Part shown: one piece after another, positions 1,406 through 11,645 of the stretch
How positions within the stretch are numbered: the first letter of the stretch is position 1
How the letters are laid out: each line of letters starts with the position of its first letter
From: an uncultured Pseudomonadota bacterium
GTDB lineage: Bacteria; Vulcanimicrobiota; Vulcanimicrobiia; Eremiobacterales; Eremiobacteraceae
Assembly (NCBI GenBank): GCA_963736005.1
Contig: CAVTNB010000003.1
Span: 453,445 to 517,444, forward strand
Direction of reading: 5' to 3'
Length of the DNA: 64,000 nt
Translations under genes and position numbers: made by a program
Notes under the pieces: generated by a model
Told to the model about the DNA's origin: nothing
Databases searched by the model: none
Seen by the model: the letters and a program-made list of their open reading frames with translations, nothing else

Positions 1406-1466
1406 GAGGGCGACTTGACAGTCGCCCGCTACATCCCGAGGGCGACTTGACAGTCGCCCGCTACAT
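1406..1466. repeat. Tandem pair of REP-like palindromes (family C, GGGCGACTTGACAGTCGCCCGCTAC)
   Basis: Two identical 29-mers at 1406-1434 and 1438-1466 between convergent genes; further copies at 48070-48094 and 57121-57146. Confidence 0.85.
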
Positions 1467-2128
1467 TACGTTGGAGTAGCGATAATAAAGACCGCAAGTG
1501 CTGCGGGGCCATGAGCGCCCAGTACGAGCGTCTTTTCGATATCTGCGGTTCTGCTTGGACCGGTGATGATCACGCCTTCGCCGCGTTCGCCCGCGCGCGC
1601 CGCCTCATTGATGCATGCGAGTGCGACGTTCGAGAGCGATGCGTGAAGGCGCGCCATCTCGCTCACAACAACGCACGTTGGCGGGAGATAGGGCAGCAGG
1701 CGATCCTCGTAGCTCGTCGCCACCGTTAGGACTGAACCCGTATCGGCCAGCAGCGCAAGGCCATCGATGAGACAACACCCTACTCGCTCTAACTCGGCCG
1801 CAGACCGCCCCTTCGCGGGTGCCACGTCGAAGCCGCGCAGCGCCAAACCTATCTCCAGCGCAAGAGGGGATGACTGCACCGCCATGCTGTTGATGCCGCG
1901 GGCGCGCACGTAGGTCTCGATTGCGCTCGCGCATGCAAGCTTGTCGCGAATGATAGTCGCTGTTCCCGCCAGCGCGCGTAACTCCGAGCAGAACATCTCT
2001 TCTAGAGAAGCGCTTGATGTGTCTGGTGCGATTAATGCGAATGCCGTGGGCGGCGCGCCGCGCGACGCATCGGCGCCCAGCGCATGCCGGATTGACTGAA
2101 GAACCTGCGCGCGAGCATCAGAGGTCAT
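1466..2128 (-). CDS. lutC: LUD-domain lactate utilization protein C
   Basis: ITGPSRTADIEKTLVLGAHGP motif; last gene of lut operon; start MTSDARAQ at 2128. Confidence 0.85.
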   Translation of the reverse strand: MTSDARAQVLQSIRHALGADASRGAPPTAFALIAPDTSSASLEEMFCSELRALAGTATIIRDKLACASAIETYVRARGINSMAVQSSPLALEIGLALRGFDVAPAKGRSAAELERVGCCLIDGLALLADTGSVLTVATSYEDRLLPYLPPTCVVVSEMARLHASLSNVALACINEAARAGERGEGVIITGPSRTADIEKTLVLGAHGPAALAVFIIATPT

Positions 2129-3494
2129 GTTCTTCTGCCCACCACTCCTTGAAGCTCTGATCGGGAACCGGCGGGAGCGCCCGTTGCTTCGCCCAAGCGC
2201 CAAGCAGGCCGGGGTACCAACCGATGGTCCTCCCCAACCGAGCCGCGCGACGCAGCCAGCGAATTCCGCGACGATATGCGGGCAAGCTCTGCATCGCTTT
2301 GGCCCAGAAGCGAATTGCTCGAGTGGTGCTCGGGTTGCCCGCGCGCGTTTCCTCAACGACCTTGTGACGCAGGTAGACCAATTGGTGCGCCAGATCGATC
2401 GCCACAGGACATGCATCCTGACATGCGCCGCACAACGACGATGCGAACGGGAGCTCTGATGCTTGTTCGGTTCCAACCAATGCCGGCGTGGTCGTGGCGC
2501 CAATTGGCCCGCTGTACGCCCCGCCATACGCCCAACCACCTGCGCGCCGGTAGACCGGACACACGTTAAGGCACGCGCCACAGCGAATGCAATACAGAGA
2601 CTCGCGTGTTCTTGGGTCGGCCAAGAGCGTCGTGCGATTTGCGTCTACCAGGATGCAGTACGTTATCTTGCCAGGCTCGGCGCCGAGAAAGTAGTGCGTG
2701 TAGGTGGTGAGTTTTTGACCGGTGCCCGCACGCGCCAGCAGTCGGAGGAACACTTGCAGATCGTCGAGGCGCGGAATGACCTTCTCGATCCCCATGAGTG
2801 CGATGTGAACCGAAGGTACCGATGATGACAGCCCACCATTGCCTTCATTTTCAACAACCACGATCGTGCCGGTCTCTGCAATCGCGAAGTTAACGCCGGT
2901 GATCCCCACCGCTGCCGTCAGGTAACGTCGCCGCAAGCGTTCGCGCGCAGCGCACATCAGGACTTCAGGGTCGTCACTGTACGGAATGCCTAGCTTGCGT
3001 TCGAAGAGCACGCCAATCTCTTGGCGCGAGAGATGCAATGCCGGACCGATGATATGCGAGGGACGCTGCCCAGCCAACTGCACGATAAACTCGCCCAGAT
3101 CGGTTTCGACAGGATCGATGGTCGCAGCGATTAGATGCTCGTTGAGGTCCATCTCCTCCGACAGCATCGACTTGCCTTTGACCACCGACATTGCGCCATG
3201 CCGGTGGCAGATATCGATCACGTGCGCGACGGCATCGGCCACCGTGGGAGCCCATAGCACGGTTCCACCTCGGGCGGTGAACTGCGCTTCAAATTGCTCG
3301 AGCAACTGATCGAGGTGTGCGATGGAGTATGCTTTGATGGCATGCGCGGCGCTGCGCAGAGCTTGCCATGGAACCTGCCTTCTCGCGGCGTCGGACGTTT
3401 CGGTCGTGCGCTCGAGCGTGGCCAGCAGTGCGGATGATGTGGTAGGATGGGCAAACCCGCGCGCAACCGCTTTGCGATCGAAAGGTTTAGCCAT
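2118..3494 (-). CDS. lutB: Lactate utilization Fe-S protein B
   Basis: VKGKSMLSEE, ETDLGEFIVQL, CIRCGACLNVCPVY, SLCGACQDACPV; start MAKPF at 3494. Confidence 0.9.
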   Translation of the reverse strand: MAKPFDRKAVARGFAHPTTSSALLATLERTTETSDAARRQVPWQALRSAAHAIKAYSIAHLDQLLEQFEAQFTARGGTVLWAPTVADAVAHVIDICHRHGAMSVVKGKSMLSEEMDLNEHLIAATIDPVETDLGEFIVQLAGQRPSHIIGPALHLSRQEIGVLFERKLGIPYSDDPEVLMCAARERLRRRYLTAAVGITGVNFAIAETGTIVVVENEGNGGLSSSVPSVHIALMGIEKVIPRLDDLQVFLRLLARAGTGQKLTTYTHYFLGAEPGKITYCILVDANRTTLLADPRTRESLYCIRCGACLNVCPVYRRAGGWAYGGAYSGPIGATTTPALVGTEQASELPFASSLCGACQDACPVAIDLAHQLVYLRHKVVEETRAGNPSTTRAIRFWAKAMQSLPAYRRGIRWLRRAARLGRTIGWYPGLLGAWAKQRALPPVPDQSFKEWWAEEHDL

Positions 3495-4242
3495 CGCTGG
3501 CCAGGATTTCAGCCAAGTGCATGAACCGCAGCATGGTGTGCGGCTGTGTTTTTCGGACAAGACCTTCGACGTGCATGAGACAGCTTGCATCGCCCGAGGT
3601 CACAACCGTAGCCCCGGTGTGCGCGATGTGCTCGCACTTCGCTTGGCCCATGGAAACCGAAAGCTCAGGATACTTCACGGCGAAAAGGCCACCGAATCCG
3701 CAACACTCATCCATCCGTGGCAGCTCGACATACTCGAGTCCGCGAACCGCCCGCAAGAGCGTCAGCGCCGCATTCGTAGCGTGCAACTCTCGACGCGCGT
3801 GACATCCATCGTGGTAGGTTACCGTGCCAGCAAAGCTCGCGCCTACATCGTCAAACCCAAGCTTTTCCACGAGAAAGGTCGCGAGGTCGTACACGCGCGC
3901 GCCAACCTGCGTCGCCTCCACTTCGCCCTCGAGCGCGGCGTAGAAAACTCGCGCCATCGCGCCGCACGAGCCCGAGGGAACCACGATCCAAGGAAAGCTT
4001 GAGAACACGTCCGCAAAGCGACGAGCCAATGCCCGCGTCTCGGACCACAGCCCGGCGTTGAACGCGGGTTGTCCGCAGCACGTTTGCTCCATCGGATATT
4101 CCAGCGGCACGCCGAGTCGCTCGAAGAGCTTAACGACGGATCTGCCTACCTGTGGAAAGAGCGCGTCGCAGTAGCAGGGCAGAAACAGTGCAACGCGCTC
4201 TCCTTGACGATACCGAACAGAAGGCGCCGATGTTTCAATCAT
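3487..4242 (-). CDS. lutA: Lactate utilization CCG-domain protein A
   Basis: QTCCGQPAFNAG, YHDGCH, ECCGFGGLFAVK, DASCLMH. Confidence 0.9.
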   Translation of the reverse strand: MIETSAPSVRYRQGERVALFLPCYCDALFPQVGRSVVKLFERLGVPLEYPMEQTCCGQPAFNAGLWSETRALARRFADVFSSFPWIVVPSGSCGAMARVFYAALEGEVEATQVGARVYDLATFLVEKLGFDDVGASFAGTVTYHDGCHARRELHATNAALTLLRAVRGLEYVELPRMDECCGFGGLFAVKYPELSVSMGQAKCEHIAHTGATVVTSGDASCLMHVEGLVRKTQPHTMLRFMHLAEILASDG

Positions 4243-4275
4243 CGCCGCCTTGTGTTCAACGTGCCCGCGACGCCA

Positions 4276-6663
4276 TCATTGCCCGAACTTCAAACCGACG
4301 TCGAAGAGCCGAGGTGGCGCATAGTGGTTGCCCTGCGCGTTGAGGATCGTCACATAGTAGCGATCGTTAAAGAGGTTTTGAATCCGAAACGTAAGGGCGG
4401 TCCGCGGTCCGACGCTCACGCCCTTCTCAACCGAGAAGATTGTGTGCGGTGTCTTCTTACAAAAGCCAGGAGTTCCGGCCGGACAAATGGCCGACGAGAG
4501 ACCGCTGCCATACTCCGCGTCCGCTGAAAACCACCCATTCTGATTGTCGTTCATGAGCATGCCGGCGGTGACGCTGTAGCTTTGATCGTGATCCGCGGGT
4601 GTGAACCCCGTGGGCGATCCGAAGCAGGGTGCAAGCAGCTGCGTTTCGCATCCCGAGTTCAACGACAGCGTGTGGGCGACGTTGACGTACGCCCGTCCGT
4701 TGCGAATGAGCGGCGCTTGGTAGGTTAGTGCTTCCTGCGAAAGCCGGCCAAGCGTGTAGTTGATGTCCTGATGGAGCAGCGTCACGCCAACTTGCGTGTC
4801 ATCGATGAGATCGTTGGCATTCTTCTGCCAAACGCGAAAGCCCAGGGTTCCATTACCCAACGGGAGATGGCCTCCAAGTTCGAGTTGCGTATCGCGCTCT
4901 GGTTTGAGATCGAATTGCGCGAGCGTCGACTGCAGCGGCAAGTTCAACAATTGCGCGGCTCGCGGATCGACGTTTTCAAGGGAGAATGGTTCGAAGAAGC
5001 GCCCTAGATACACATAGACACTCGCCCGAGGTCCGAAATTTCTCGCGAGCTTGATGCGCGGACTCACCGCGCCGAATCCACGGGCAAAATCTGTCGACTT
5101 GATGTTGAACAGATCCCAGCGCATTCCGTAGTCGAGTGTGTAGGCGTTCCCCATGGTCCAGCTATCCTCAACGTACGTGCTGTAGATGTTGCCCACGTTG
5201 GGATTGTTGTCCACCACCGTAAAGGGTGCATGCGGCATTCCTTTCGTAAAAATCGGCGCCAAGAAGTTGTTCGGTTGCAGCGTCACCTGATAGTCTTTGA
5301 TGACGCGGGTCCCATCGTAGGAGATGCCAGCGCGCAGTTCGTGCTTCTCGTATTGTTTTGAGTAATCGCTTTGAAAGATGTAATCCAGCGCCGTCTTGTC
5401 GTCGAAGAGCGAGAAGGCGCACGTGGTGGGAGAAAAGACTCCGGTTTGCACAGCCTTGGCGCAATCGGTGGAGCTTCCACCGTTGCCGAAAGGCGGTGGA
5501 GTTTGGTTGATAGCCTCTCCAAAGGCCCAGTCGTTGACCGGATCGCCGTAGTCCACAACACGCGAAACCTTAAATGCCGGTCCAAAACTGAGCGCGCCTG
5601 CATTGCCCAGAGCCTGGCGGAATTGAACATTGACGAAGGTGTCGAGTTGCTTCTCGCTGTCATCCGTGTTCCCAGGCTCTCCAAAGCTGGTAGCATTGGG
5701 TATTTGGTTTGTTTGGAAACTGTTGATGATCGAGACGTCGGTGAAGTTGTTATTGCCGCGCGGCAGCGTCAAGCGCACGAACTCATTCGCGTCGCTTGCG
5801 TTGTTGTGCGGCGAACCCAGGTCGGGCGGGTCTAAGCCGCGAGTGGACTGGTCGAGATGCAGAGCTGCAGCGAGCCCCCCACCACCACTAAGCGGTGAGT
5901 GGAACCCCAGCGTCTCGTCGAGGTTCGTGTACGAACCAACGTGCATTTCACCATCAACGCCCGCTGGTCCGGATTGGGCGCGGGTTGAGATGTTGAGTAC
6001 CGACCCGAATTTGAGTCCATACTGCGCCGGGTACGCACCCTCCATGGCATCGACGAACGATACATCGTTGGGATCGATCTCACTGCCGATCTCTCGATTG
6101 AGCGCCTGAGGCACCGCAACGCCGTCAACGACGTAGTTGATGACTCCGTGGTCGCCGTTGAGGTGCACAACGCCGTTGGCCCCGCGCACCGCGCCGGGCA
6201 GCTGGATGAGTGCTTCGGGGAAGTTGCCGTTGTATGGCAAGCGCGTCAATACCGTCTTGTTGAGAACCGTATCGGAGCCGCTGCCGCGGCTGACTCCGGA
6301 GGTCACAACGCTCACGCGTCCGAGTTCGGATATTTGAGCAAGCACGAGCATGACCGTTGCGCCGCCGTTGCTCAGATCCACCCGGACCTGAGCTTGCATG
6401 CCACTTGCTGTCGCGGTCACGATATACGTGCCAAGACCGAGACCCGGGAATGTAAAGTGCCCCTGCGGGTCCGTGATGACTTTGGCCGTGAAATTATTGC
6501 CAGCCACCGTGACCGCAGCCCCTGGAACGGACTTGCCGTCTGACGTGACCGTACCGGACAAGAAAGCGCTCCCACCGGCCGCTAGCACCGCGCTTTTTTC
6601 CAAATAGGTGCAAGCGCACCACATTATTGTGAGAACGAGAAAAAACCGAGAAAACTTCTCCAC
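4276..6663 (-). CDS. TonB-dependent receptor with N-terminal carboxypeptidase-regulatory-like domain
   Basis: Signal peptide, SGTVTSDGKSVPGAAVTV, plug motif GAYPAQYG, SPRI and LKPERD, C-terminal NLFNDRYY...PRLFDVGLKF. Confidence 0.85.
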   Translation of the reverse strand: MEKFSRFFLVLTIMWCACTYLEKSAVLAAGGSAFLSGTVTSDGKSVPGAAVTVAGNNFTAKVITDPQGHFTFPGLGLGTYIVTATASGMQAQVRVDLSNGGATVMLVLAQISELGRVSVVTSGVSRGSGSDTVLNKTVLTRLPYNGNFPEALIQLPGAVRGANGVVHLNGDHGVINYVVDGVAVPQALNREIGSEIDPNDVSFVDAMEGAYPAQYGLKFGSVLNISTRAQSGPAGVDGEMHVGSYTNLDETLGFHSPLSGGGGLAAALHLDQSTRGLDPPDLGSPHNNASDANEFVRLTLPRGNNNFTDVSIINSFQTNQIPNATSFGEPGNTDDSEKQLDTFVNVQFRQALGNAGALSFGPAFKVSRVVDYGDPVNDWAFGEAINQTPPPFGNGGSSTDCAKAVQTGVFSPTTCAFSLFDDKTALDYIFQSDYSKQYEKHELRAGISYDGTRVIKDYQVTLQPNNFLAPIFTKGMPHAPFTVVDNNPNVGNIYSTYVEDSWTMGNAYTLDYGMRWDLFNIKSTDFARGFGAVSPRIKLARNFGPRASVYVYLGRFFEPFSLENVDPRAAQLLNLPLQSTLAQFDLKPERDTQLELGGHLPLGNGTLGFRVWQKNANDLIDDTQVGVTLLHQDINYTLGRLSQEALTYQAPLIRNGRAYVNVAHTLSLNSGCETQLLAPCFGSPTGFTPADHDQSYSVTAGMLMNDNQNGWFSADAEYGSGLSSAICPAGTPGFCKKTPHTIFSVEKGVSVGPRTALTFRIQNLFNDRYYVTILNAQGNHYAPPRLFDVGLKFGQ

Positions 6664-6757
6664 GATGACTCCAACTCCTCATGAATATCTTCAAACGACG
6701 GCTGTCACAGCCGGCGTATGCCGACCGTAAGACGCGCGCTTTTAGGGCGCTAGGGGA

Positions 6758-7420
6758 TTACGCGAGGAGCGGAGGTGGACGGTTGGCGAGTTGCGGTGAC
6801 CAAAAGATGCTGCGTGGCGACCACGCGAAGTTCAAGCATGGCCGGAACACATGGGACGTCTCGCCAGCAGCTGGAAGCAGCATCGCCGCCAAGCGTGCTG
6901 CAACTCTTGGCAGTCGTGCGGCAATGAGCCGTCCAACAATGGCGAGCAACAGTGCCGTGACAAGGGCACCAACGACGCCTGCGATCACGTCATGACCGCA
7001 AAAGAAGCAACCCTCGCCGATCGCGCTGCCGACGCCGGCCGCAAATTGCAGGGTCGCCGCGAGCAAATAGAATTGCCAGCCGCCGCCCAGAGGCAGCGTG
7101 GCCATCTCATTTGAGAGCAGACGTTTAAAATCTCGGATACCACTGGCCCGCTGTGTCAGTCCGCGAAATTCACAGACGACGACCGTTGCGCTCGCAAGCG
7201 CGATCAGGGCAAGATAGGCGTGACGTGGGGAGAGCACAATGTGCGCGTCAGCATCTGCGCCCATCCCAAAAAACTCGGATGCCAAATGGGTGAGCACGGC
7301 ACCTACAACGATGCCCGCTGGAACGGTCCAACGCAAGCTCGATGCCTGAGCCCAATGTTGAGAGGTCACAGAAAACAATTTCCCCACTGATAAGTATCGG
7401 CTTGCCCAAAGCTGCGGCAT
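6758..7420 (-). CDS. Membrane protein with CxxC and C-terminal LANRPPP motif; putative regulatory leader of the downstream receptor
   Basis: About 4 hydrophobic segments, CFFCGHD, ends LANRPPPLLA. Start uncertain (ATG 7420 or GTG near 7369); the ORF-track extension to 7651 crosses the operator and is unlikely. Confidence 0.7.
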   Translation of the reverse strand: MPQLWASRYLSVGKLFSVTSQHWAQASSLRWTVPAGIVVGAVLTHLASEFFGMGADADAHIVLSPRHAYLALIALASATVVVCEFRGLTQRASGIRDFKRLLSNEMATLPLGGGWQFYLLAATLQFAAGVGSAIGEGCFFCGHDVIAGVVGALVTALLLAIVGRLIAARLPRVAARLAAMLLPAAGETSHVFRPCLNFAWSPRSIFWSPQLANRPPPLLA

Positions 7421-7438
7421 ATGCTGGTCATCACACTT

Positions 7439-7463
7439 GTTATCGAGAATCATTCTCGATAAC
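7439..7463. promoter_or_regulatory. Perfect palindromic operator GTTATCGAGAAT-C-ATTCTCGATAAC (Fur/Zur-type box)
   Basis: 12-1-12 inverted repeat between divergent genes; identical 23-bp core at 18543-18565. Confidence 0.85.
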
Positions 7464-7553
7464 CACAGCGGCTGACCTTCGCCTAGCATCATGAAAATGC
7501 CCTGAATCCCTTGCAATGGATGACTGACGAAATGCCGAACACTCATACAGAAT

Positions 7554-8231
7554 ATGCCAAACCGAGACCGCTTCGCCTGGCTCCTTATTACCGCGACTGC
7601 CCTTGCCGCCATGGTCGTCGGCCATGCACTAGAGCTGTGGCTTGAGAACATACATGCCTTTGGCGAGCGTCCTGCTCAGTATAACCACGTTGCCCAAAGC
7701 TTCGTCGTGGAAATGGCTGCGCTTGCGTTTCTCGTTGCAGGGGTCGCTCTTGTCAGCCGCCTGGTCGCTTTGGCGGCACGATCAGTTCCGCGCGGCGACT
7801 CCTTGTTGCCCGCGTTGCACGCGATTGCCCAAAACGGGGTGGGTCGAGTCATCTTGCGCCTCGTCACCGTACAGCTACTCGCGCTGCTGCTGACGGAGTT
7901 TTGCGAACAGCGGCTCTCTGGATTCCAGGGCAATGCGCTCCTGTCGATCGTCGGACCAGGTCACGCGACAGCGCTCGCTGTCCATCTGCTTTTGGGTTCG
8001 CTGGCTGCATTTTTGCTCTTTCGTTTTGCGCGCTTCGCGTCTGCGCGGACACGCTCACTCGTCCATGCCGTCGTTGCTTTCCTGCGCTGGGTTGCGCTGC
8101 AGCCCAACGGCACCGCGCAACTTCCGCATGGTCCCTCGAGCGTTCCCACATTTTTTGCCCGCAAGCTTTGCCTGATCTCTCTCGGACTTGCTAATAGACC
8201 ACCTCCGATAACCTCCGCACTTTTCGCCTAG
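7554..8231 (+). CDS. Membrane protein with His residues in or near TM segments and C-terminal LANRPPP motif; putative regulatory leader
   Basis: About 4 TM-like segments (GHALE, YNHVA, GPGHATALAVH); ends LANRPPPITSALFA 65 nt before the receptor ATG. Confidence 0.75.
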   Translation: MPNRDRFAWLLITATALAAMVVGHALELWLENIHAFGERPAQYNHVAQSFVVEMAALAFLVAGVALVSRLVALAARSVPRGDSLLPALHAIAQNGVGRVILRLVTVQLLALLLTEFCEQRLSGFQGNALLSIVGPGHATALAVHLLLGSLAAFLLFRFARFASARTRSLVHAVVAFLRWVALQPNGTAQLPHGPSSVPTFFARKLCLISLGLANRPPPITSALFA

Positions 8232-8296
8232 GCACAAAGCCGTCGTGGCTTTGGCATAGCCTAGGCTCCTTGCTATGCTTTTTGCGGAGGTCTTCC

Positions 8297-10582
8297 ATGC
8301 GATTTGTACTCGCAACCATTGTCTTGGCAATTCTTGTCACTATGTGCTCCTTGAACCCAGCATCCGCCGATGTCTACGGATCTGTGCGCGGCGTTGTTTT
8401 CGATCCTGGCAATCACCCCATCGACGGTGCGAAGGTCTCGCTCGCGGCGCCTGACGAAGCCACGCAAACAACGCCGACCGACTCCACTGGGCATTTCCGT
8501 TTTGCCCAGGTACCCTTCGACACATACGCACTGAGCGTTGATGCCCAAGGCTTCGCCCCAGCCTCGAGCGTGGTGACAGTTTTGTCGGGTAACGCGGTGG
8601 ACGTGACATTCCATCTTTCACTCAAGACGATCGGGCGGGTCGTCGCGGTGGGCACGTCGACGGGTGCATCAGGGCAACCCGTGAGCGTCAACGTTATTTC
8701 GCAACAAACCATAGCAGCGCTGCCCAACGGAAACTCGCTGCAGCGAATAGTACAGACCGTTCCCGGCGTCGTTCCGTTTTCATATAACGAACCGGTTGCG
8801 CGCGGCTTTCATGGCGTGACCTACGAGATCGACGGGGTCCCGTTACCGCAAACCGCGGGGCAGTACTTCTCCGAGATTATCGACCCGCGTGACGTCGATC
8901 GCCTCGAAGTGTTCACGGGCGCAATGCCCGCCGAGTTCGGCGGTCAGCGTCAGGGCGCCGTGGTTGACGTGCTCACGAAGTCCGCGAACCAGTTCATCGG
9001 CCCAGATGGGGGTACCGTGTCTCTGTTCGGCGGATCGTATAATACCGCTGGTGTGTCGCTCGATCAGGTGGCTGGAAGCGGAAATTTCCGCGCATTCTTC
9101 AACGCCAATCTGTTTCGGAACGCACGTGGTTTGGATTCTCCAACGAGCTCCCCCGAGCACGACAACTCCAATCAGAGCGACGGCTTCTTGCGACTTCTGT
9201 TCTCGCCGAGCTCGCGCGATACGCTGGCGTTTGACTATTCCGAGCAGTATGCAGCGTTCCAAATTCCAATCGACACGAACCAACACGACCCTAACAACCC
9301 AAATTGGTCAGTGCCCGGCACCGACGACAACCAACACGAGTATACCCGCTTTGCGAATCTCACGTACAATCACACAAGCGCCGATGGCAATGGCTTTTTC
9401 GAGTTGACGCCCTGGTGGAGTTCGGACCGGCTCACCTATCTGCCGGATCCGCAGAACGACCTCGCCGGCGCCTCGCAATCCTCGACCTTCCAGGACCGTT
9501 ACTCCAACTTTGTCGGTCTCGCAGCCGCTCTGTTTCGTGGTGGTGAAAGGAACAGCGTCAAAGTTGGAGTCAACACCGACGTTCAAAACATGATGAGCGC
9601 GTTCAACATCTTGTTCATCGACCCAAACACCGGGAAGCTTGCGCCTCCTTTTGAGGACAACGTTGCTCAACGCGGAACGAACACGGGAGTCTATGCCGAA
9701 GACAAGTTCTATGCCTCGCCTTACGTGACCCTAGACGGCGGCCTTCGCTGGGATCACTCGACTGGCTTCACGTCTGGCAATCAGATTAGCCCGCGCATTG
9801 AAGCCAATTTTCAGGCAGACCCAAAGAACGTTGTCCATTTTTACTACGGCCGCTTGTATGCCGCACCAGCCCTCGAAGACGTGCGGCGAGATGCAGTCGT
9901 TATTGGCGGCGGTTCGTCTAACGCAGTGCCGGTGTACGACCTCAAACCTGAGCGAGACTCTATTTATGAGGCCGGCGTTGCGCACGAGTTCAGTCCGCTC
10001 GTGCACGGCTTCCTTACCTTGTGGGGTCGGTCAGTCAACAACGTCCTCGATACGACGCAGATCGGCAGTACGCCGTTGTTTACGGTCTTCAACTCTGCGG
10101 GAGGTCAGGCAAGCGGCGTGGAGTTTCGCATCAACGGCCGCGTCCTCAATGGCAACTCCTATTACTTCTCGTATGGCACAAGCTACAGCATCGCGTCAGG
10201 CATCTCCGGCGGAACGTTCAACTTCCCAGTCAGCGCGCTGCAGGGTGCCAACGGGTGGGCGCTCGAGGACCACGATCAAACGAACACGATCAACACGGCG
10301 TACACGTTCACTGCTCCCGGTGGCCGGTTCGCGACGCTGCAAGCCCTCTTTGGCAGCGGCTTCCCAGTGCAGTTCGAAAATGGCCCGGGGCGGCTGCCGG
10401 CGCACTGGGAACTTGGCGCCTCGTACGGACAGCCGGCGTCGCGCACGGGCGTGGGCTGGGAAGTGAGCGGCACGAACCTGCTCAATCACTTCTATCTAAT
10501 CAAAGTCGCGAACGGGTTCAACTCCACGCAGTACTCGGCCGGAAGGCAGGTTACTGTGAAGTTGACGGCGCCTGTCTACTAA
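8297..10582 (+). CDS. TonB-dependent receptor with N-terminal carboxypeptidase-regulatory-like domain
   Basis: SD GGAGG before ATG 8297; signal peptide; GAMPAEFGG, ISPRI, LKPERD, NLLNHFY...GRQVTVKL. Confidence 0.88.
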   Translation: MRFVLATIVLAILVTMCSLNPASADVYGSVRGVVFDPGNHPIDGAKVSLAAPDEATQTTPTDSTGHFRFAQVPFDTYALSVDAQGFAPASSVVTVLSGNAVDVTFHLSLKTIGRVVAVGTSTGASGQPVSVNVISQQTIAALPNGNSLQRIVQTVPGVVPFSYNEPVARGFHGVTYEIDGVPLPQTAGQYFSEIIDPRDVDRLEVFTGAMPAEFGGQRQGAVVDVLTKSANQFIGPDGGTVSLFGGSYNTAGVSLDQVAGSGNFRAFFNANLFRNARGLDSPTSSPEHDNSNQSDGFLRLLFSPSSRDTLAFDYSEQYAAFQIPIDTNQHDPNNPNWSVPGTDDNQHEYTRFANLTYNHTSADGNGFFELTPWWSSDRLTYLPDPQNDLAGASQSSTFQDRYSNFVGLAAALFRGGERNSVKVGVNTDVQNMMSAFNILFIDPNTGKLAPPFEDNVAQRGTNTGVYAEDKFYASPYVTLDGGLRWDHSTGFTSGNQISPRIEANFQADPKNVVHFYYGRLYAAPALEDVRRDAVVIGGGSSNAVPVYDLKPERDSIYEAGVAHEFSPLVHGFLTLWGRSVNNVLDTTQIGSTPLFTVFNSAGGQASGVEFRINGRVLNGNSYYFSYGTSYSIASGISGGTFNFPVSALQGANGWALEDHDQTNTINTAYTFTAPGGRFATLQALFGSGFPVQFENGPGRLPAHWELGASYGQPASRTGVGWEVSGTNLLNHFYLIKVANGFNSTQYSAGRQVTVKLTAPVY

Positions 10583-11027
10583 GCCGGGACTGTGCACGCG
10601 ACCACCACGCAAGGTAGATCGCCGCAGCAAAGAGACTCACGTCGCGTAGCACCGTCATCCACGTCGCGGGTTGATTGTCGCCTGGACCAAAGCAACCGCA
10701 AGGCGCACTCAACCCGCGGATGACGGCCGAAGCAACGATAACCGAGAAGAGCGCGAGCACAGCAGCCGCGACCGCTGAAGACACCGGAAGCAGGAGCCCC
10801 GCTACGAGATAAATCCCAAGCAGTATCTCAAGTGGCGGGAGCGCGAGCGCCAAGCCTGCAACAAACGGGGGAGGCGCGCCAAGCTTGTAGGCGGTTATCG
10901 CCGCGGCGAGATCGGCGGGATGGCCAATTTTCAAGATGCCTGCAGCGAGGAAAATGCCGCCGACGATAAGGCGTACGAGGAAGGGAACAATATGAGCGCG
11001 AGGCCCAAAGAGACGAGCCAGGGTCAA
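10551..11027 (-). CDS. MauE/DoxX family membrane protein
   Basis: RLIVGGIFLAAGILKI, LPPLEILLG, RGLSAPCGCFG. Start uncertain (TTG 11027); 5' end overlaps the divergent TlpA gene. Confidence 0.8.
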   Translation of the reverse strand: MTLARLFGPRAHIVPFLVRLIVGGIFLAAGILKIGHPADLAAAITAYKLGAPPPFVAGLALALPPLEILLGIYLVAGLLLPVSSAVAAAVLALFSVIVASAVIRGLSAPCGCFGPGDNQPATWMTVLRDVSLFAAAIYLAWWSRAQSRLSRQAPSTSQ

Positions 11028-11645
11028 AAGGCCGCCACCTCGCCGCCACGCCGACCCACAAGCGTGCTCTTGCCAGCCATCGTCGCGTTGGTTGCGATTG
11101 CTGCTATCATTGTCTACGCGGTTCTGCACGCCAACCGAGCCGTTCCTGGGTCTGCTGTCGCAACCGACTCGCCTGCGCTCCCACCGCCAATCAAAGCCGG
11201 CGCGCAAGCGCCCGGGTTTGCGTTGCCCAGCAAGATTGGCACGTTTTCCTCAAGCGAACTTGACGGCACGCCCTATCTCTTGGAGATTTTTGCGACGTGG
11301 TGCCCGCACTGCCAGCGCATGACGAAGGTTCTGCGCGCGATTCGCGCGAGCGTACCGCAAGCGCGTCTCGGCATGGTTTCGGTGACCGGCTCGCCGTACG
11401 CGGCTAATTCGACGCCGGACAATCTCGTTCCCGAAAATCAAGGTGACGTTGATGCATTTGAGTCAACGTTCGGCGTCACGTGGCCGAGCTTTTACGATCC
11501 CGACCTTACGGTGGCAAAGAAGTGGGGCTTGGATGGCTTCCCGACGATCTTCATCGTCAATGCAAAAGGAACGATCGTCTACGCAACGAGCGGGGAAGTA
11601 TCAAAAACCGAATTGATGAACGCCATAAAGAAGGCCGGCGCTTAG
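10992..11645 (+). CDS. TlpA/ResA-like thiol-disulfide oxidoreductase
   Basis: N-terminal TM anchor, FATWCPHC, cis-Pro motif GFPTIFIVNAKG. Confidence 0.88.
   Translation: MSARPKETSQGQKAATSPPRRPTSVLLPAIVALVAIAAIIVYAVLHANRAVPGSAVATDSPALPPPIKAGAQAPGFALPSKIGTFSSSELDGTPYLLEIFATWCPHCQRMTKVLRAIRASVPQARLGMVSVTGSPYAANSTPDNLVPENQGDVDAFESTFGVTWPSFYDPDLTVAKKWGLDGFPTIFIVNAKGTIVYATSGEVSKTELMNAIKKAGA

Follow-up and report, generated by a model that had tools for sequence, protein, structure and literature searches.

A membrane-protein leader ending in RPPP whose codons pair with the Shine–Dalgarno sequence of a TonB-dependent receptor gene: a candidate arrest-peptide switch

Organisation of the locus

We analysed a 64,000-nucleotide (nt) stretch of DNA from an uncultured bacterium (GTDB family Eremiobacteraceae; GenBank assembly GCA_963736005.1, contig CAVTNB010000003.1, positions 453,445 to 517,444 of the forward strand), referred to below as the window, with positions counted from its first base. 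Two divergent units in the window each consist of a gene for a membrane protein with Ala-Asn-Arg-Pro-Pro-Pro (ANRPPP) close to its C-terminus, here called the leader, followed by a gene for a TonB-dependent receptor. In the right-hand unit, codons at the end of the leader form an anti-Shine–Dalgarno (anti-SD) sequence directed at the receptor gene's Shine–Dalgarno (SD) sequence. This anti-SD is real, conserved and co-adapted with its target, and the sequences point to arrest-dependent unmasking of the receptor's ribosome-binding site (RBS) as its most likely function. The features of the right-hand unit are as follows.

7554–8231, plus strand: right-hand leader gene, from the list of open reading frames (ORFs); 225-residue inner-membrane protein of an unnamed family, C-terminus ...LGLANRPPPITSALFA
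8190–8207, plus strand: A-N-R-P-P-P codons, of which R-P-P-P is the proposed arrest motif
8201–8207, plus strand: first anti-SD copy, ACCTCCG, within the Pro codons; alternative pairing register
8211–8219, plus strand: second anti-SD copy, ACCTCCGCA, in the T-S-A codons; exact complement of 8283–8291
8226–8266, plus strand: stop-codon hairpin, with the TAG stop (8229–8231) in its 5′ arm and an inner hairpin (8235–8253) enclosed
8283–8291, plus strand: SD segment, TGCGGAGGT, with the receptor GGAGG at 8286–8290
8297–10582, plus strand: right-hand TonB-dependent receptor gene; signal peptide and N-terminal carboxypeptidase-regulatory-like domain

The C-terminus of the leader is ANRPPP plus seven residues, and the R-P-P-P codons (AGA CCA CCT CCG, 8196–8207) are in the frame of the 7554–8231 ORF. 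The gap between leader and receptor is 65 nt, and the receptor ATG (8297–8299) stands six bases past the SD. Both plug and barrel domains of a TonB-dependent receptor were recognised in the right-hand protein (Pfam CarboxypepD_reg, 5.3e-17; Plug, 1.6e-12; TonB_dep_Rec_b-barrel, 4.7e-16). No NCBIfam subfamily reached its cut-off for either of the two receptors.

Predicted fold of the leader–receptor junction

A sequence-only reading of this region had described 8211–8219 as the perfect complement of the segment holding the receptor SD, with a second ACCTCCG in the Pro codons, and direct reading of the bases confirmed both. The minimum free energy (MFE) fold of 8190–8305 is −40.7 kcal/mol (z = −3.52), with none of 200 shuffled sequences equally stable, and has 8211–8219 paired with 8283–8291. 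In the ensemble this pairing has a probability (P) of 0.84, compared with 0.13 for the pairing of the Pro-codon copy (8201–8207) with 8285–8291. A 9-nt complement covering the SD within 140 nt upstream was found at none of 157 other SD-bearing long-ORF starts of the same genome; the longest perfect complement at these control starts was 4 nt or less in 125, 5 nt in 23, 6 nt in six, 7 nt in two and 8 nt in one. An Rfam scan of 4000–11000 at E ≤ 1 gave no match.

The interior of the fold differs from that first described, in which two hairpins, at 8235–8253 and 8254–8278, filled the interval. The MFE structure instead has one long stem pairing 8226–8233 with 8259–8266 (P = 0.89). The first hairpin (8235–8241 with 8247–8253) forms with P = 0.99 and is nested within this stem, while the second (8254–8260 with 8272–8278) has P = 0.11; the exact structure described earlier is −33.7 kcal/mol, against −40.7 for the MFE. 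As the anti-SD/SD pairing is present and only the interior had been mispredicted, the original observation stands with the corrected interior. The hairpin across the leader stop would bring the anti-SD and SD strands together.

Two other roles for the interval were considered and rejected. The 8254–8278 hairpin with its U run was not retained as a terminator or antiterminator: it has the low probability given above, it went unflagged in the terminator scan, and its arms are not conserved in the closest relative. A sigma-70-like pair (TTGGCA, 17 nt, TATGCT) at 8251–8279, in the gap between leader and receptor, was treated as a chance occurrence, its frequency (one found, 0.7 expected) matching that in shuffled sequences. 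If this promoter were used, the receptor mRNA would lack the anti-SD.

Conservation and covariation in related loci

With the right-hand protein as a single query, homologues were found in 24 of 31 genomes of the same family and in none of 28 sister-family genomes; a profile of the RAPP-type relatives described below later matched 50 of 71. A codon pattern for ANRPPP gave 53 matches, spread over 24 of 32 genomes; its reversed form, used as a control, gave 16. We assembled 33 loci in which the ORF ends in A-[NS]-R-P-P-P plus one to eight residues; 32 have a downstream long ORF and one (L026) does not.

Each locus was folded together with flanks of 90 nt (5′) and 45 nt (3′). Of the 32 loci, 28 have the SD core paired with the motif or tail codons at P ≥ 0.5, and 23 reach P ≥ 0.9; without L005 and L022, which come from genomes flagged unpublished (G013 and G008), the counts are 26 of 30 and 21 of 30. 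Positive loci occur in eight of the nine genera represented. The SD pairs either with the Pro codons (offsets 12–15 from the Ala codon) or with tail codons 2–4 (offsets 22–27), and in many relatives the Pro-codon copy is the main register (peak offsets 12–15). The stop codon lies within a hairpin like that described above at P ≥ 0.5 in 14 of the 32 loci, and the hairpin arms covary with the stop codon (TAG/CTA versus TAA/TTA).

Pairing of this kind might be expected by default, given C-rich Pro codons and G-rich SDs, in which case it would be a by-product and ANRPPP would be a docking or sorting motif of the finished protein. We therefore compared native motif/SD duplexes with swapped ones in 21 representative loci. 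The swapped duplexes still reach about −14 kcal/mol, as a by-product would predict (mean −14.4, standard deviation 0.51), but the native duplexes are more stable (mean −17.3 kcal/mol) and none of 20,000 permutations was as good. Similarly, CCTCC in the PPP codons is not peculiar to these loci, since 48 of the 146 remaining PPP sites of this genome also have it, compared with 23 of 32 loci; among Pro codons, CCT is the one that the genome uses least (12%). In the loci without CCTCC (L005, L006, L008, L012, L020 and L045), however, the complement is supplied by the tail codons. When 200 synonymous recodings were made for each locus, the native duplex was the more stable (mean z = −1.55), with 12 of 32 loci in the best 5% and two of 32 worse than the median. 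Control SDs, moreover, rarely pair with one upstream window: when 49 genes with GGAGG as their SD were each allowed the most favourable 42-nt window upstream, P reached 0.5 in 16 and 0.9 in two. Together with the placing of the motif in a low-confidence tail of the protein model and the covariation of SD and Pro-codon variants in RAPP-type loci (both below), these results leave a by-product as a very improbable explanation.

Covariation extends beyond the SD core. The bases 5′ of GGAGG covary with those 3′ of CCUCC, giving the combinations ACCUCCGCA/UGCGGAGGU, GCCUCCGU/ACGGAGGC, UCUCCACU/AGUGGAGA and CCUCCACG/CGUGGAGG. In the right-hand unit the TGC on the 5′ side of GGAGG has no complementarity to the 3′ end of 16S rRNA (...GGAUCACCUCCUUUCU), and the covarying 5′ flanks do not correspond to what that end would select. 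The covariation in relatives that had been proposed as a check was thus found, with compensatory changes in the RAPP-type loci, and the description of the arrest-motif region as an anti-SD is upheld by agreement between the comparative and thermodynamic tests (pairing in relatives, swaps and recoding).

The usual downstream gene in the related loci encodes a receptor with the same signal-peptide/ADVYG start. In L015, L018, L045, L047 and L051 it encodes other proteins with an N-terminal signal-like segment, and in L030 a cytochrome-c-domain protein. The alternative target in those five loci is a signal-peptide protein of ∼300 residues with the N-terminal pattern HVVCG-x-RVFPTTLT-x-DDP; the three scanned (from L015, L018 and L045) had no Pfam match. 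L018 (G025:C171) also has an SD-like sequence, GGUGGAGG, complementary to the Pro codons and ∼45 nt past the leader stop, which precedes only a short ORF (∼38 codons, counted by eye); the gene for the different signal-peptide protein lies 174 nt after the leader stop. This arrangement looks like one in which the receptor gene has been lost or replaced, and the start assigned in L018 may hide a remnant of the same anti-SD design.

The leader family and its C-terminal motif

Neither leader protein matched a Pfam family at E ≤ 0.01 or any NCBIfam family, and the homologues that were looked up carried no name beyond ‘hypothetical protein’. The AlphaFold2 model of the right-hand leader (mean predicted local distance difference test score 81.9) has four long hydrophobic helices (6–32, 47–75, 96–121 and 135–164), as expected of the transmembrane (TM) members of the RAPP-like class, and a further helix at 166–181; a low-confidence tail beginning at ∼182 holds the motif. 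No match at E ≤ 0.001 was obtained when the model was searched against the PDB by fold. The residues that do not vary across 23 aligned sequences are H24, Y43, H45, Q107, E115, E118, G134, A213, R215 and P216–218.

Of 28 homologous ORF ends, 24 retain the ANRPPP motif. Synonymous changes are seen in the Arg codon (AGA, AGG or CGN) and in the Pro codons, whereas A-[NS]-R-P-P-P itself is constant, which suggests that the motif is selected as a peptide. Among the 42,379 stop-to-stop frames of this genome that are 40 residues or longer, only 30 end in RPPP, and ANRPPP is found only in the two window ORFs.

A profile search of 1.84 billion representative sequences gave 493 proteins at E ≤ 0.001. 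Among the best 150 of these, 140 have R-x-P-P (RxPP) in the last 18 residues, in the form of RPPP (63), RAPP (61), RGPP (14) or RSPP (2); of the 10 that lack it, six are fragments no longer than 138 residues. Because RAPP and RGPP are found at the same C-terminal place, RPPP takes the place of the canonical arrest motif in members of a single homologous family, and the right-hand leader shares with the RAPP-like arrest peptides an R-x-P-P near the C-terminus with an invariant Arg. The arrest sequence is RAGP or RAPP in SecM and ApdA/ApdP.

Published mutants bear on the proline variant. The change A132P in ApdP, which produces RPPP, gave arrest near the wild-type level in Bacillus subtilis and partial arrest in Escherichia coli, and A121P in ApdA, which also produces RPPP, was partly permissive (PMC12992588). 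At RAPP and RGPP the ribosome stalls when the third motif codon is in the P site and the fourth in the A site, and the stall is refractory to elongation factor P (EF-P) (PMC12992588). The mutants and the RAPP/RGPP of the homologues support the earlier proposal that RPPP is an arrest motif; in sequence it is a naturally occurring variant of RAPP/RGPP.

RAPP-type loci

The RAPP-type profile matched 59 of 151 genomes of the phylum, all in the same class. By family, the matches were in 7 of 9, 50 of 71 and 1 of 1 genomes of three families, with none in the 18 other families sampled. Among 29 RAPP-type loci an SD could be assigned in 26, of which 21 show its pairing with the motif or tail at P ≥ 0.5 and 16 at P ≥ 0.9. 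As with the ANRPPP loci, native duplexes (−15.8 kcal/mol over the 29 loci) were more stable than swapped ones (−11.4 kcal/mol), and none of 20,000 permutations was as good. The SD and the codons covary: GGGGG is found with CCC CCN (CCCCC), GGGAG with CCU CCC (CUCCC), UGAAGGAG with CUC CUU CA (CUCCUUCA) and GCAGGAG with CUC CUG C. Ten downstream genes were scanned; the products were LytR-CpsA-Psr proteins in six cases, CarboxypepD_reg proteins in three and a bestrophin-like protein in one.

A RAPP-type paralogue (L072) is present in the same genome outside the window (G000 contig C3, 301906–302532). It ends in ...IGERAPPLLAS and lies upstream of a LytR-CpsA-Psr gene, the SD of which pairs with the motif region at P = 0.42 only. 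In three sister-family loci (L081–L083) the start of the RAPP-type leader overlaps the preceding stop by 4 nt (ATGA/GTGA), and the upstream gene is mutS by sequence. An ORF end with K-R-P-P-P upstream of these leaders was considered as a second arrest peptide and rejected, being a MutS-like C-terminus as judged by sequence reading alone; the MutS-like C-termini of L081, L082, L083 and L074 happen to contain K-R-P-P-P or K-R-A-P-P.

The left-hand unit

The divergent unit has the same arrangement on the minus strand.

6758–7651, minus strand: left-hand leader gene, from the ORF list; membrane protein, C-terminus ...SPQLANRPPPLLA
6764–6779, minus strand: left-hand anti-SD, UCCACCUCCGCUCCUC, in the Arg/Pro codons and two Leu codons
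6659–6680, minus strand: left-hand RBS, with GAGGAG, UGGAG and a GTG start at 6663–6661
4276–6663, minus strand: left-hand TonB-dependent receptor gene, GTG start

The minus-strand MFE fold of 6650–6800 is −51.1 kcal/mol (z = −2.45), with codons 6779–6764 paired with GAGGAG, UGGAG and the GTG start, and the SD pairs with the motif at P = 1.00. The left-hand receptor was recognised by CarboxypepD_reg (3.8e-13) and TonB_dep_Rec_b-barrel (1.1e-10), with a weak Plug match (0.0069) under the cut-off. When the two leader proteins were compared by BLASTP only LANRPPP aligned; profile comparison related their C-terminal halves with 93% probability.

Members of the left-hand leader family share an invariant GEGCxFCGHD, in which His and Asp adjoin a CxxC, ∼73 residues before RPPP, at residues ∼212–221 of the left-hand leader (6980–7010, minus strand). 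It is reminiscent of the metal site of DUF2946 leaders, as a resemblance only. The divergent leader ORFs as listed overlap by 98 nt (7554–7651). The true start of the left-hand leader is probably downstream of 7651, because conservation among homologues begins near residue 96 of the 297-residue frame; if so, the promoter region shared by the two units would lie at roughly 7400–7550.

Proposed mechanism and the effect of masking

Our preferred reading, to which we give a probability of about two in three, is that a RAPP-like arrest peptide in a new protein family unmasks the receptor SD, with leader and receptor on one mRNA, in both divergent units. The leader would be a four-helix inner-membrane protein with a disordered cytoplasmic tail ending in A-N-R-P-P-P. 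In free mRNA the motif codons and the next two to four codons would pair with the receptor SD, and in the left-hand unit the pairing would extend to the start codon; this pairing of motif and tail codons is proposed to hold receptor translation down. A pause with the P site on the second Pro codon and the A site on the third would place both anti-SD copies in, or at the edge of, the mRNA channel. While they were occupied by the ribosome the SD would be released and the receptor translated, and once the ribosome moved on and terminated the helix would re-form.

The anti-SD at 8211–8219 lies 9–17 nt 3′ of the first base (8202) of the presumed P-site codon. With CCT (8202–8204) in the P site, the ribosome footprint would be expected to protect the mRNA to ∼8217, covering all of the first anti-SD copy and most of the second. 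The computed cost of opening the right-hand RBS is 16.4 kcal/mol; among 150 control genes the median is 8.4 and the 90th percentile 13.2, and only 1.3% exceed the right-hand value. Masking the mRNA up to the leading edge of the ribosome lowers the cost from 16.4 to 8.4 kcal/mol here, and the median over the 32 loci from 13.0 to 7.4, approximately that of ordinary genes. In silico, the downstream SD is thus in a structure that an arrested ribosome could disrupt.

A number of results weigh against this reading. Masking the footprint alone leaves the SD core of 30 of 32 loci with a predicted pairing of P ≥ 0.5, and in folds of the 3′ part only the median paired probability of the SD is 0.71. Because the masked folds keep the SD partly paired, the folding model predicts cheaper opening of the RBS rather than full exposure of the SD. 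In the computations the original expectation that a stalled ribosome exposes the RBS was borne out for the opening cost but not in full, the SD being predicted to remain partly paired with other partners. With the starts as assigned, four of the 32 ANRPPP loci (L018, L019, L047 and L051) show no SD/motif pairing, nor do five of the 26 RAPP-type loci in which an SD could be assigned. A rule of our own was used to choose start codons and SDs in the relatives, and, as the loci are related, the counts overstate their independence. RNAalifold gave a weak consensus (−2.03 kcal/mol) for a MAFFT alignment of 10 loci; this we attribute to misalignment of the SD and to shifts in pairing register between loci, and the anchored duplex and permutation tests were used in its place. 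Finally, EF-P, which normally relieves pauses at PPP, is encoded in the genome.

The last point also suits plain translational coupling, in which any ribosome reaching the end of the leader melts the helix, the proline run has a minor effect relieved by EF-P, nothing is sensed and there is no true arrest. Both the pairing and its conservation are as compatible with coupling as with a regulated arrest. Coupling alone leaves unexplained the presence of R-x-P-P in 140 of the best 150 of the 493 representatives, at a set distance from the stop in a tail that is otherwise variable, and also why the variants should be RPPP, RAPP, RGPP and RSPP. On balance we consider it unlikely.

If the pairing instead serves a true arrest, as we prefer, then we infer that ribosomes stall at the motif, that the receptor is regulated as a result and that some signal is sensed; the stall would presumably last long enough to matter despite EF-P. 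Its duration may be tuned by something that the nascent four-helix bundle senses, for which a ligand, a metal bound by the invariant His, Glu and Gln, or envelope status are candidates. The last membrane helix of the model ends ∼53 residues before the stall site, so the whole bundle could assemble while the tail is held in the ribosome. By analogy, this could correspond to the leader assembly during a stall that has been proposed for CruR and CutF.

Comparison with known arrest leaders

A close parallel in design is CutF–cutO of Rhodobacter capsulatus, in which a DUF2946 leader has a C-terminal G-PPP-RL (PMC9973294; bioRxiv 10.1101/2025.02.05.636593). In both systems a C-terminal PPP stall site, here a proposed one, lies a few codons before the stop, and in CutF, too, a stem-loop shields the next SD and is proposed to be melted by the stalled ribosome. 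CutF, as there described, is a small secreted protein with a CxxxC copper site, whereas the leader here is a 225-residue four-helix membrane protein without a Pfam match; the target here is a TonB-dependent receptor rather than a multicopper oxidase. The present motif has the invariant Arg of RAPP-type motifs, and the anti-SD is located in the stall codons or just after them.

CruR–bfrG of Bordetella pertussis has a DUF2946 leader with RAPP three residues before the stop (PMC9426467). It resembles the present units in that an RxPP leader immediately precedes the gene for a TonB-dependent transporter, and expression of the transporter controlled by CruR requires the motif (PMC9426467). CruR was shown in vitro to arrest with the P site on the third codon and the A site on the fourth (PMC12992588). 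The leaders themselves differ: CruR is a small exported CXXC protein, and those described here belong to another family. PF11162 (DUF2946) matched neither leader at E ≤ 0.01 and gave no match when the genome (84% complete) was searched in six frames. The right-hand protein lacks a CxxC or CxxxC metal site at a set distance before the proline motif.

CruR, the one studied arrest leader before a TonB-dependent transporter, uses Rho-dependent termination (PMC9426467), which raises the alternative that a stall here acts on transcription or mRNA fate, the parked ribosome blocking Rho or a nuclease from the intergenic RNA and the SD pairing being secondary. The CruR gap is 162 nt with an unstructured C-rich region (PMC9426467), whereas here the gap is 65 nt and strongly structured, with the SD sequestered. 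A terminator scan found no terminator-like site between 8231 and 8297, and a Rho-based mechanism does not need the SD flank to covary with the motif region. We regard it as highly unlikely.

Unmasking of the RBS is the outcome in SecM–secA, MifM–yidC2, VemP–secDF2 and ApdA/ApdP, where a C-terminal arrest sequence exposes a downstream SD held in a stem-loop. Those monitoring substrates have Sec or YidC targets and are released by the force of translocation or insertion. The genes downstream here are TonB-dependent receptors, not SecA, SecDF or YidC; the targets are outer-membrane receptors and, in homologues, LytR-CpsA-Psr enzymes.

Four Streptomyces lividans proteins (SLIV_18480, SLIV_27375, SLIV_33595, SLIV_33605) are similar in being polytopic membrane proteins with a C-terminal RAPP or RGPP (PMC12992588). 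These four-TM proteins are reported to arrest in vitro, and conserved His or Cys residues were suggested to sense metals (PMC12992588). The comparison is by description only, and the excerpts of that source mention neither an SD-masking helix, nor RPPP, nor a TonB-dependent receptor target for them (PMC12992588). The family described here could already be among the RxPP leaders in the supplements of PMC12992588 and PMC10987492.

RBS-unmasking arrest peptides have been known for secretion machinery (SecM, MifM, VemP) and more recently for copper homeostasis (CutF, CruR). The present units would extend the principle to an unannotated family of four-helix membrane proteins with 493 sequence clusters, in which RPPP would be used in nature interchangeably with RAPP and RGPP, and to new targets, namely TonB-dependent receptors controlled at initiation and, in relatives, LytR-CpsA-Psr genes. 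An anti-SD in the stall codons with a covarying partner in dozens of loci offers a compact, sequence-readable test case for the length of pause needed to switch on a neighbouring gene, and gives a rule for spotting further such switches in uncultured bacteria.

A broader proposal, which we offer tentatively and consider somewhat doubtful, is that the leaders are a family of polytopic membrane sensors, spread through the taxonomic class, with the speed of their own translation as sole output, the length of an EF-P-refractory stall at RPPP, RAPP or RGPP setting how far the next gene is translated. The nascent bundle, with its invariant His, Tyr, Gln and Glu, would then bind a ligand or metal or report envelope status while the ribosome still holds its tail, and stall length would act directly because the stall codons are the anti-SD. 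If this were so, the module found before TonB-dependent receptors, other outer-membrane proteins and LytR-CpsA-Psr genes would be a general envelope regulator of this lineage that needs no transcription factor.

Neighbouring genes

The genes flanking the two units give no clear clue to the receptors' substrate. Downstream of the left-hand receptor, at 1466–4242 on the minus strand, are LUD/CCG-domain genes of lactate-utilisation-like character. Past the right-hand receptor, 10551–11645 holds a gene for a MauE/DoxX membrane protein and one for a thioredoxin/redoxin-like protein.

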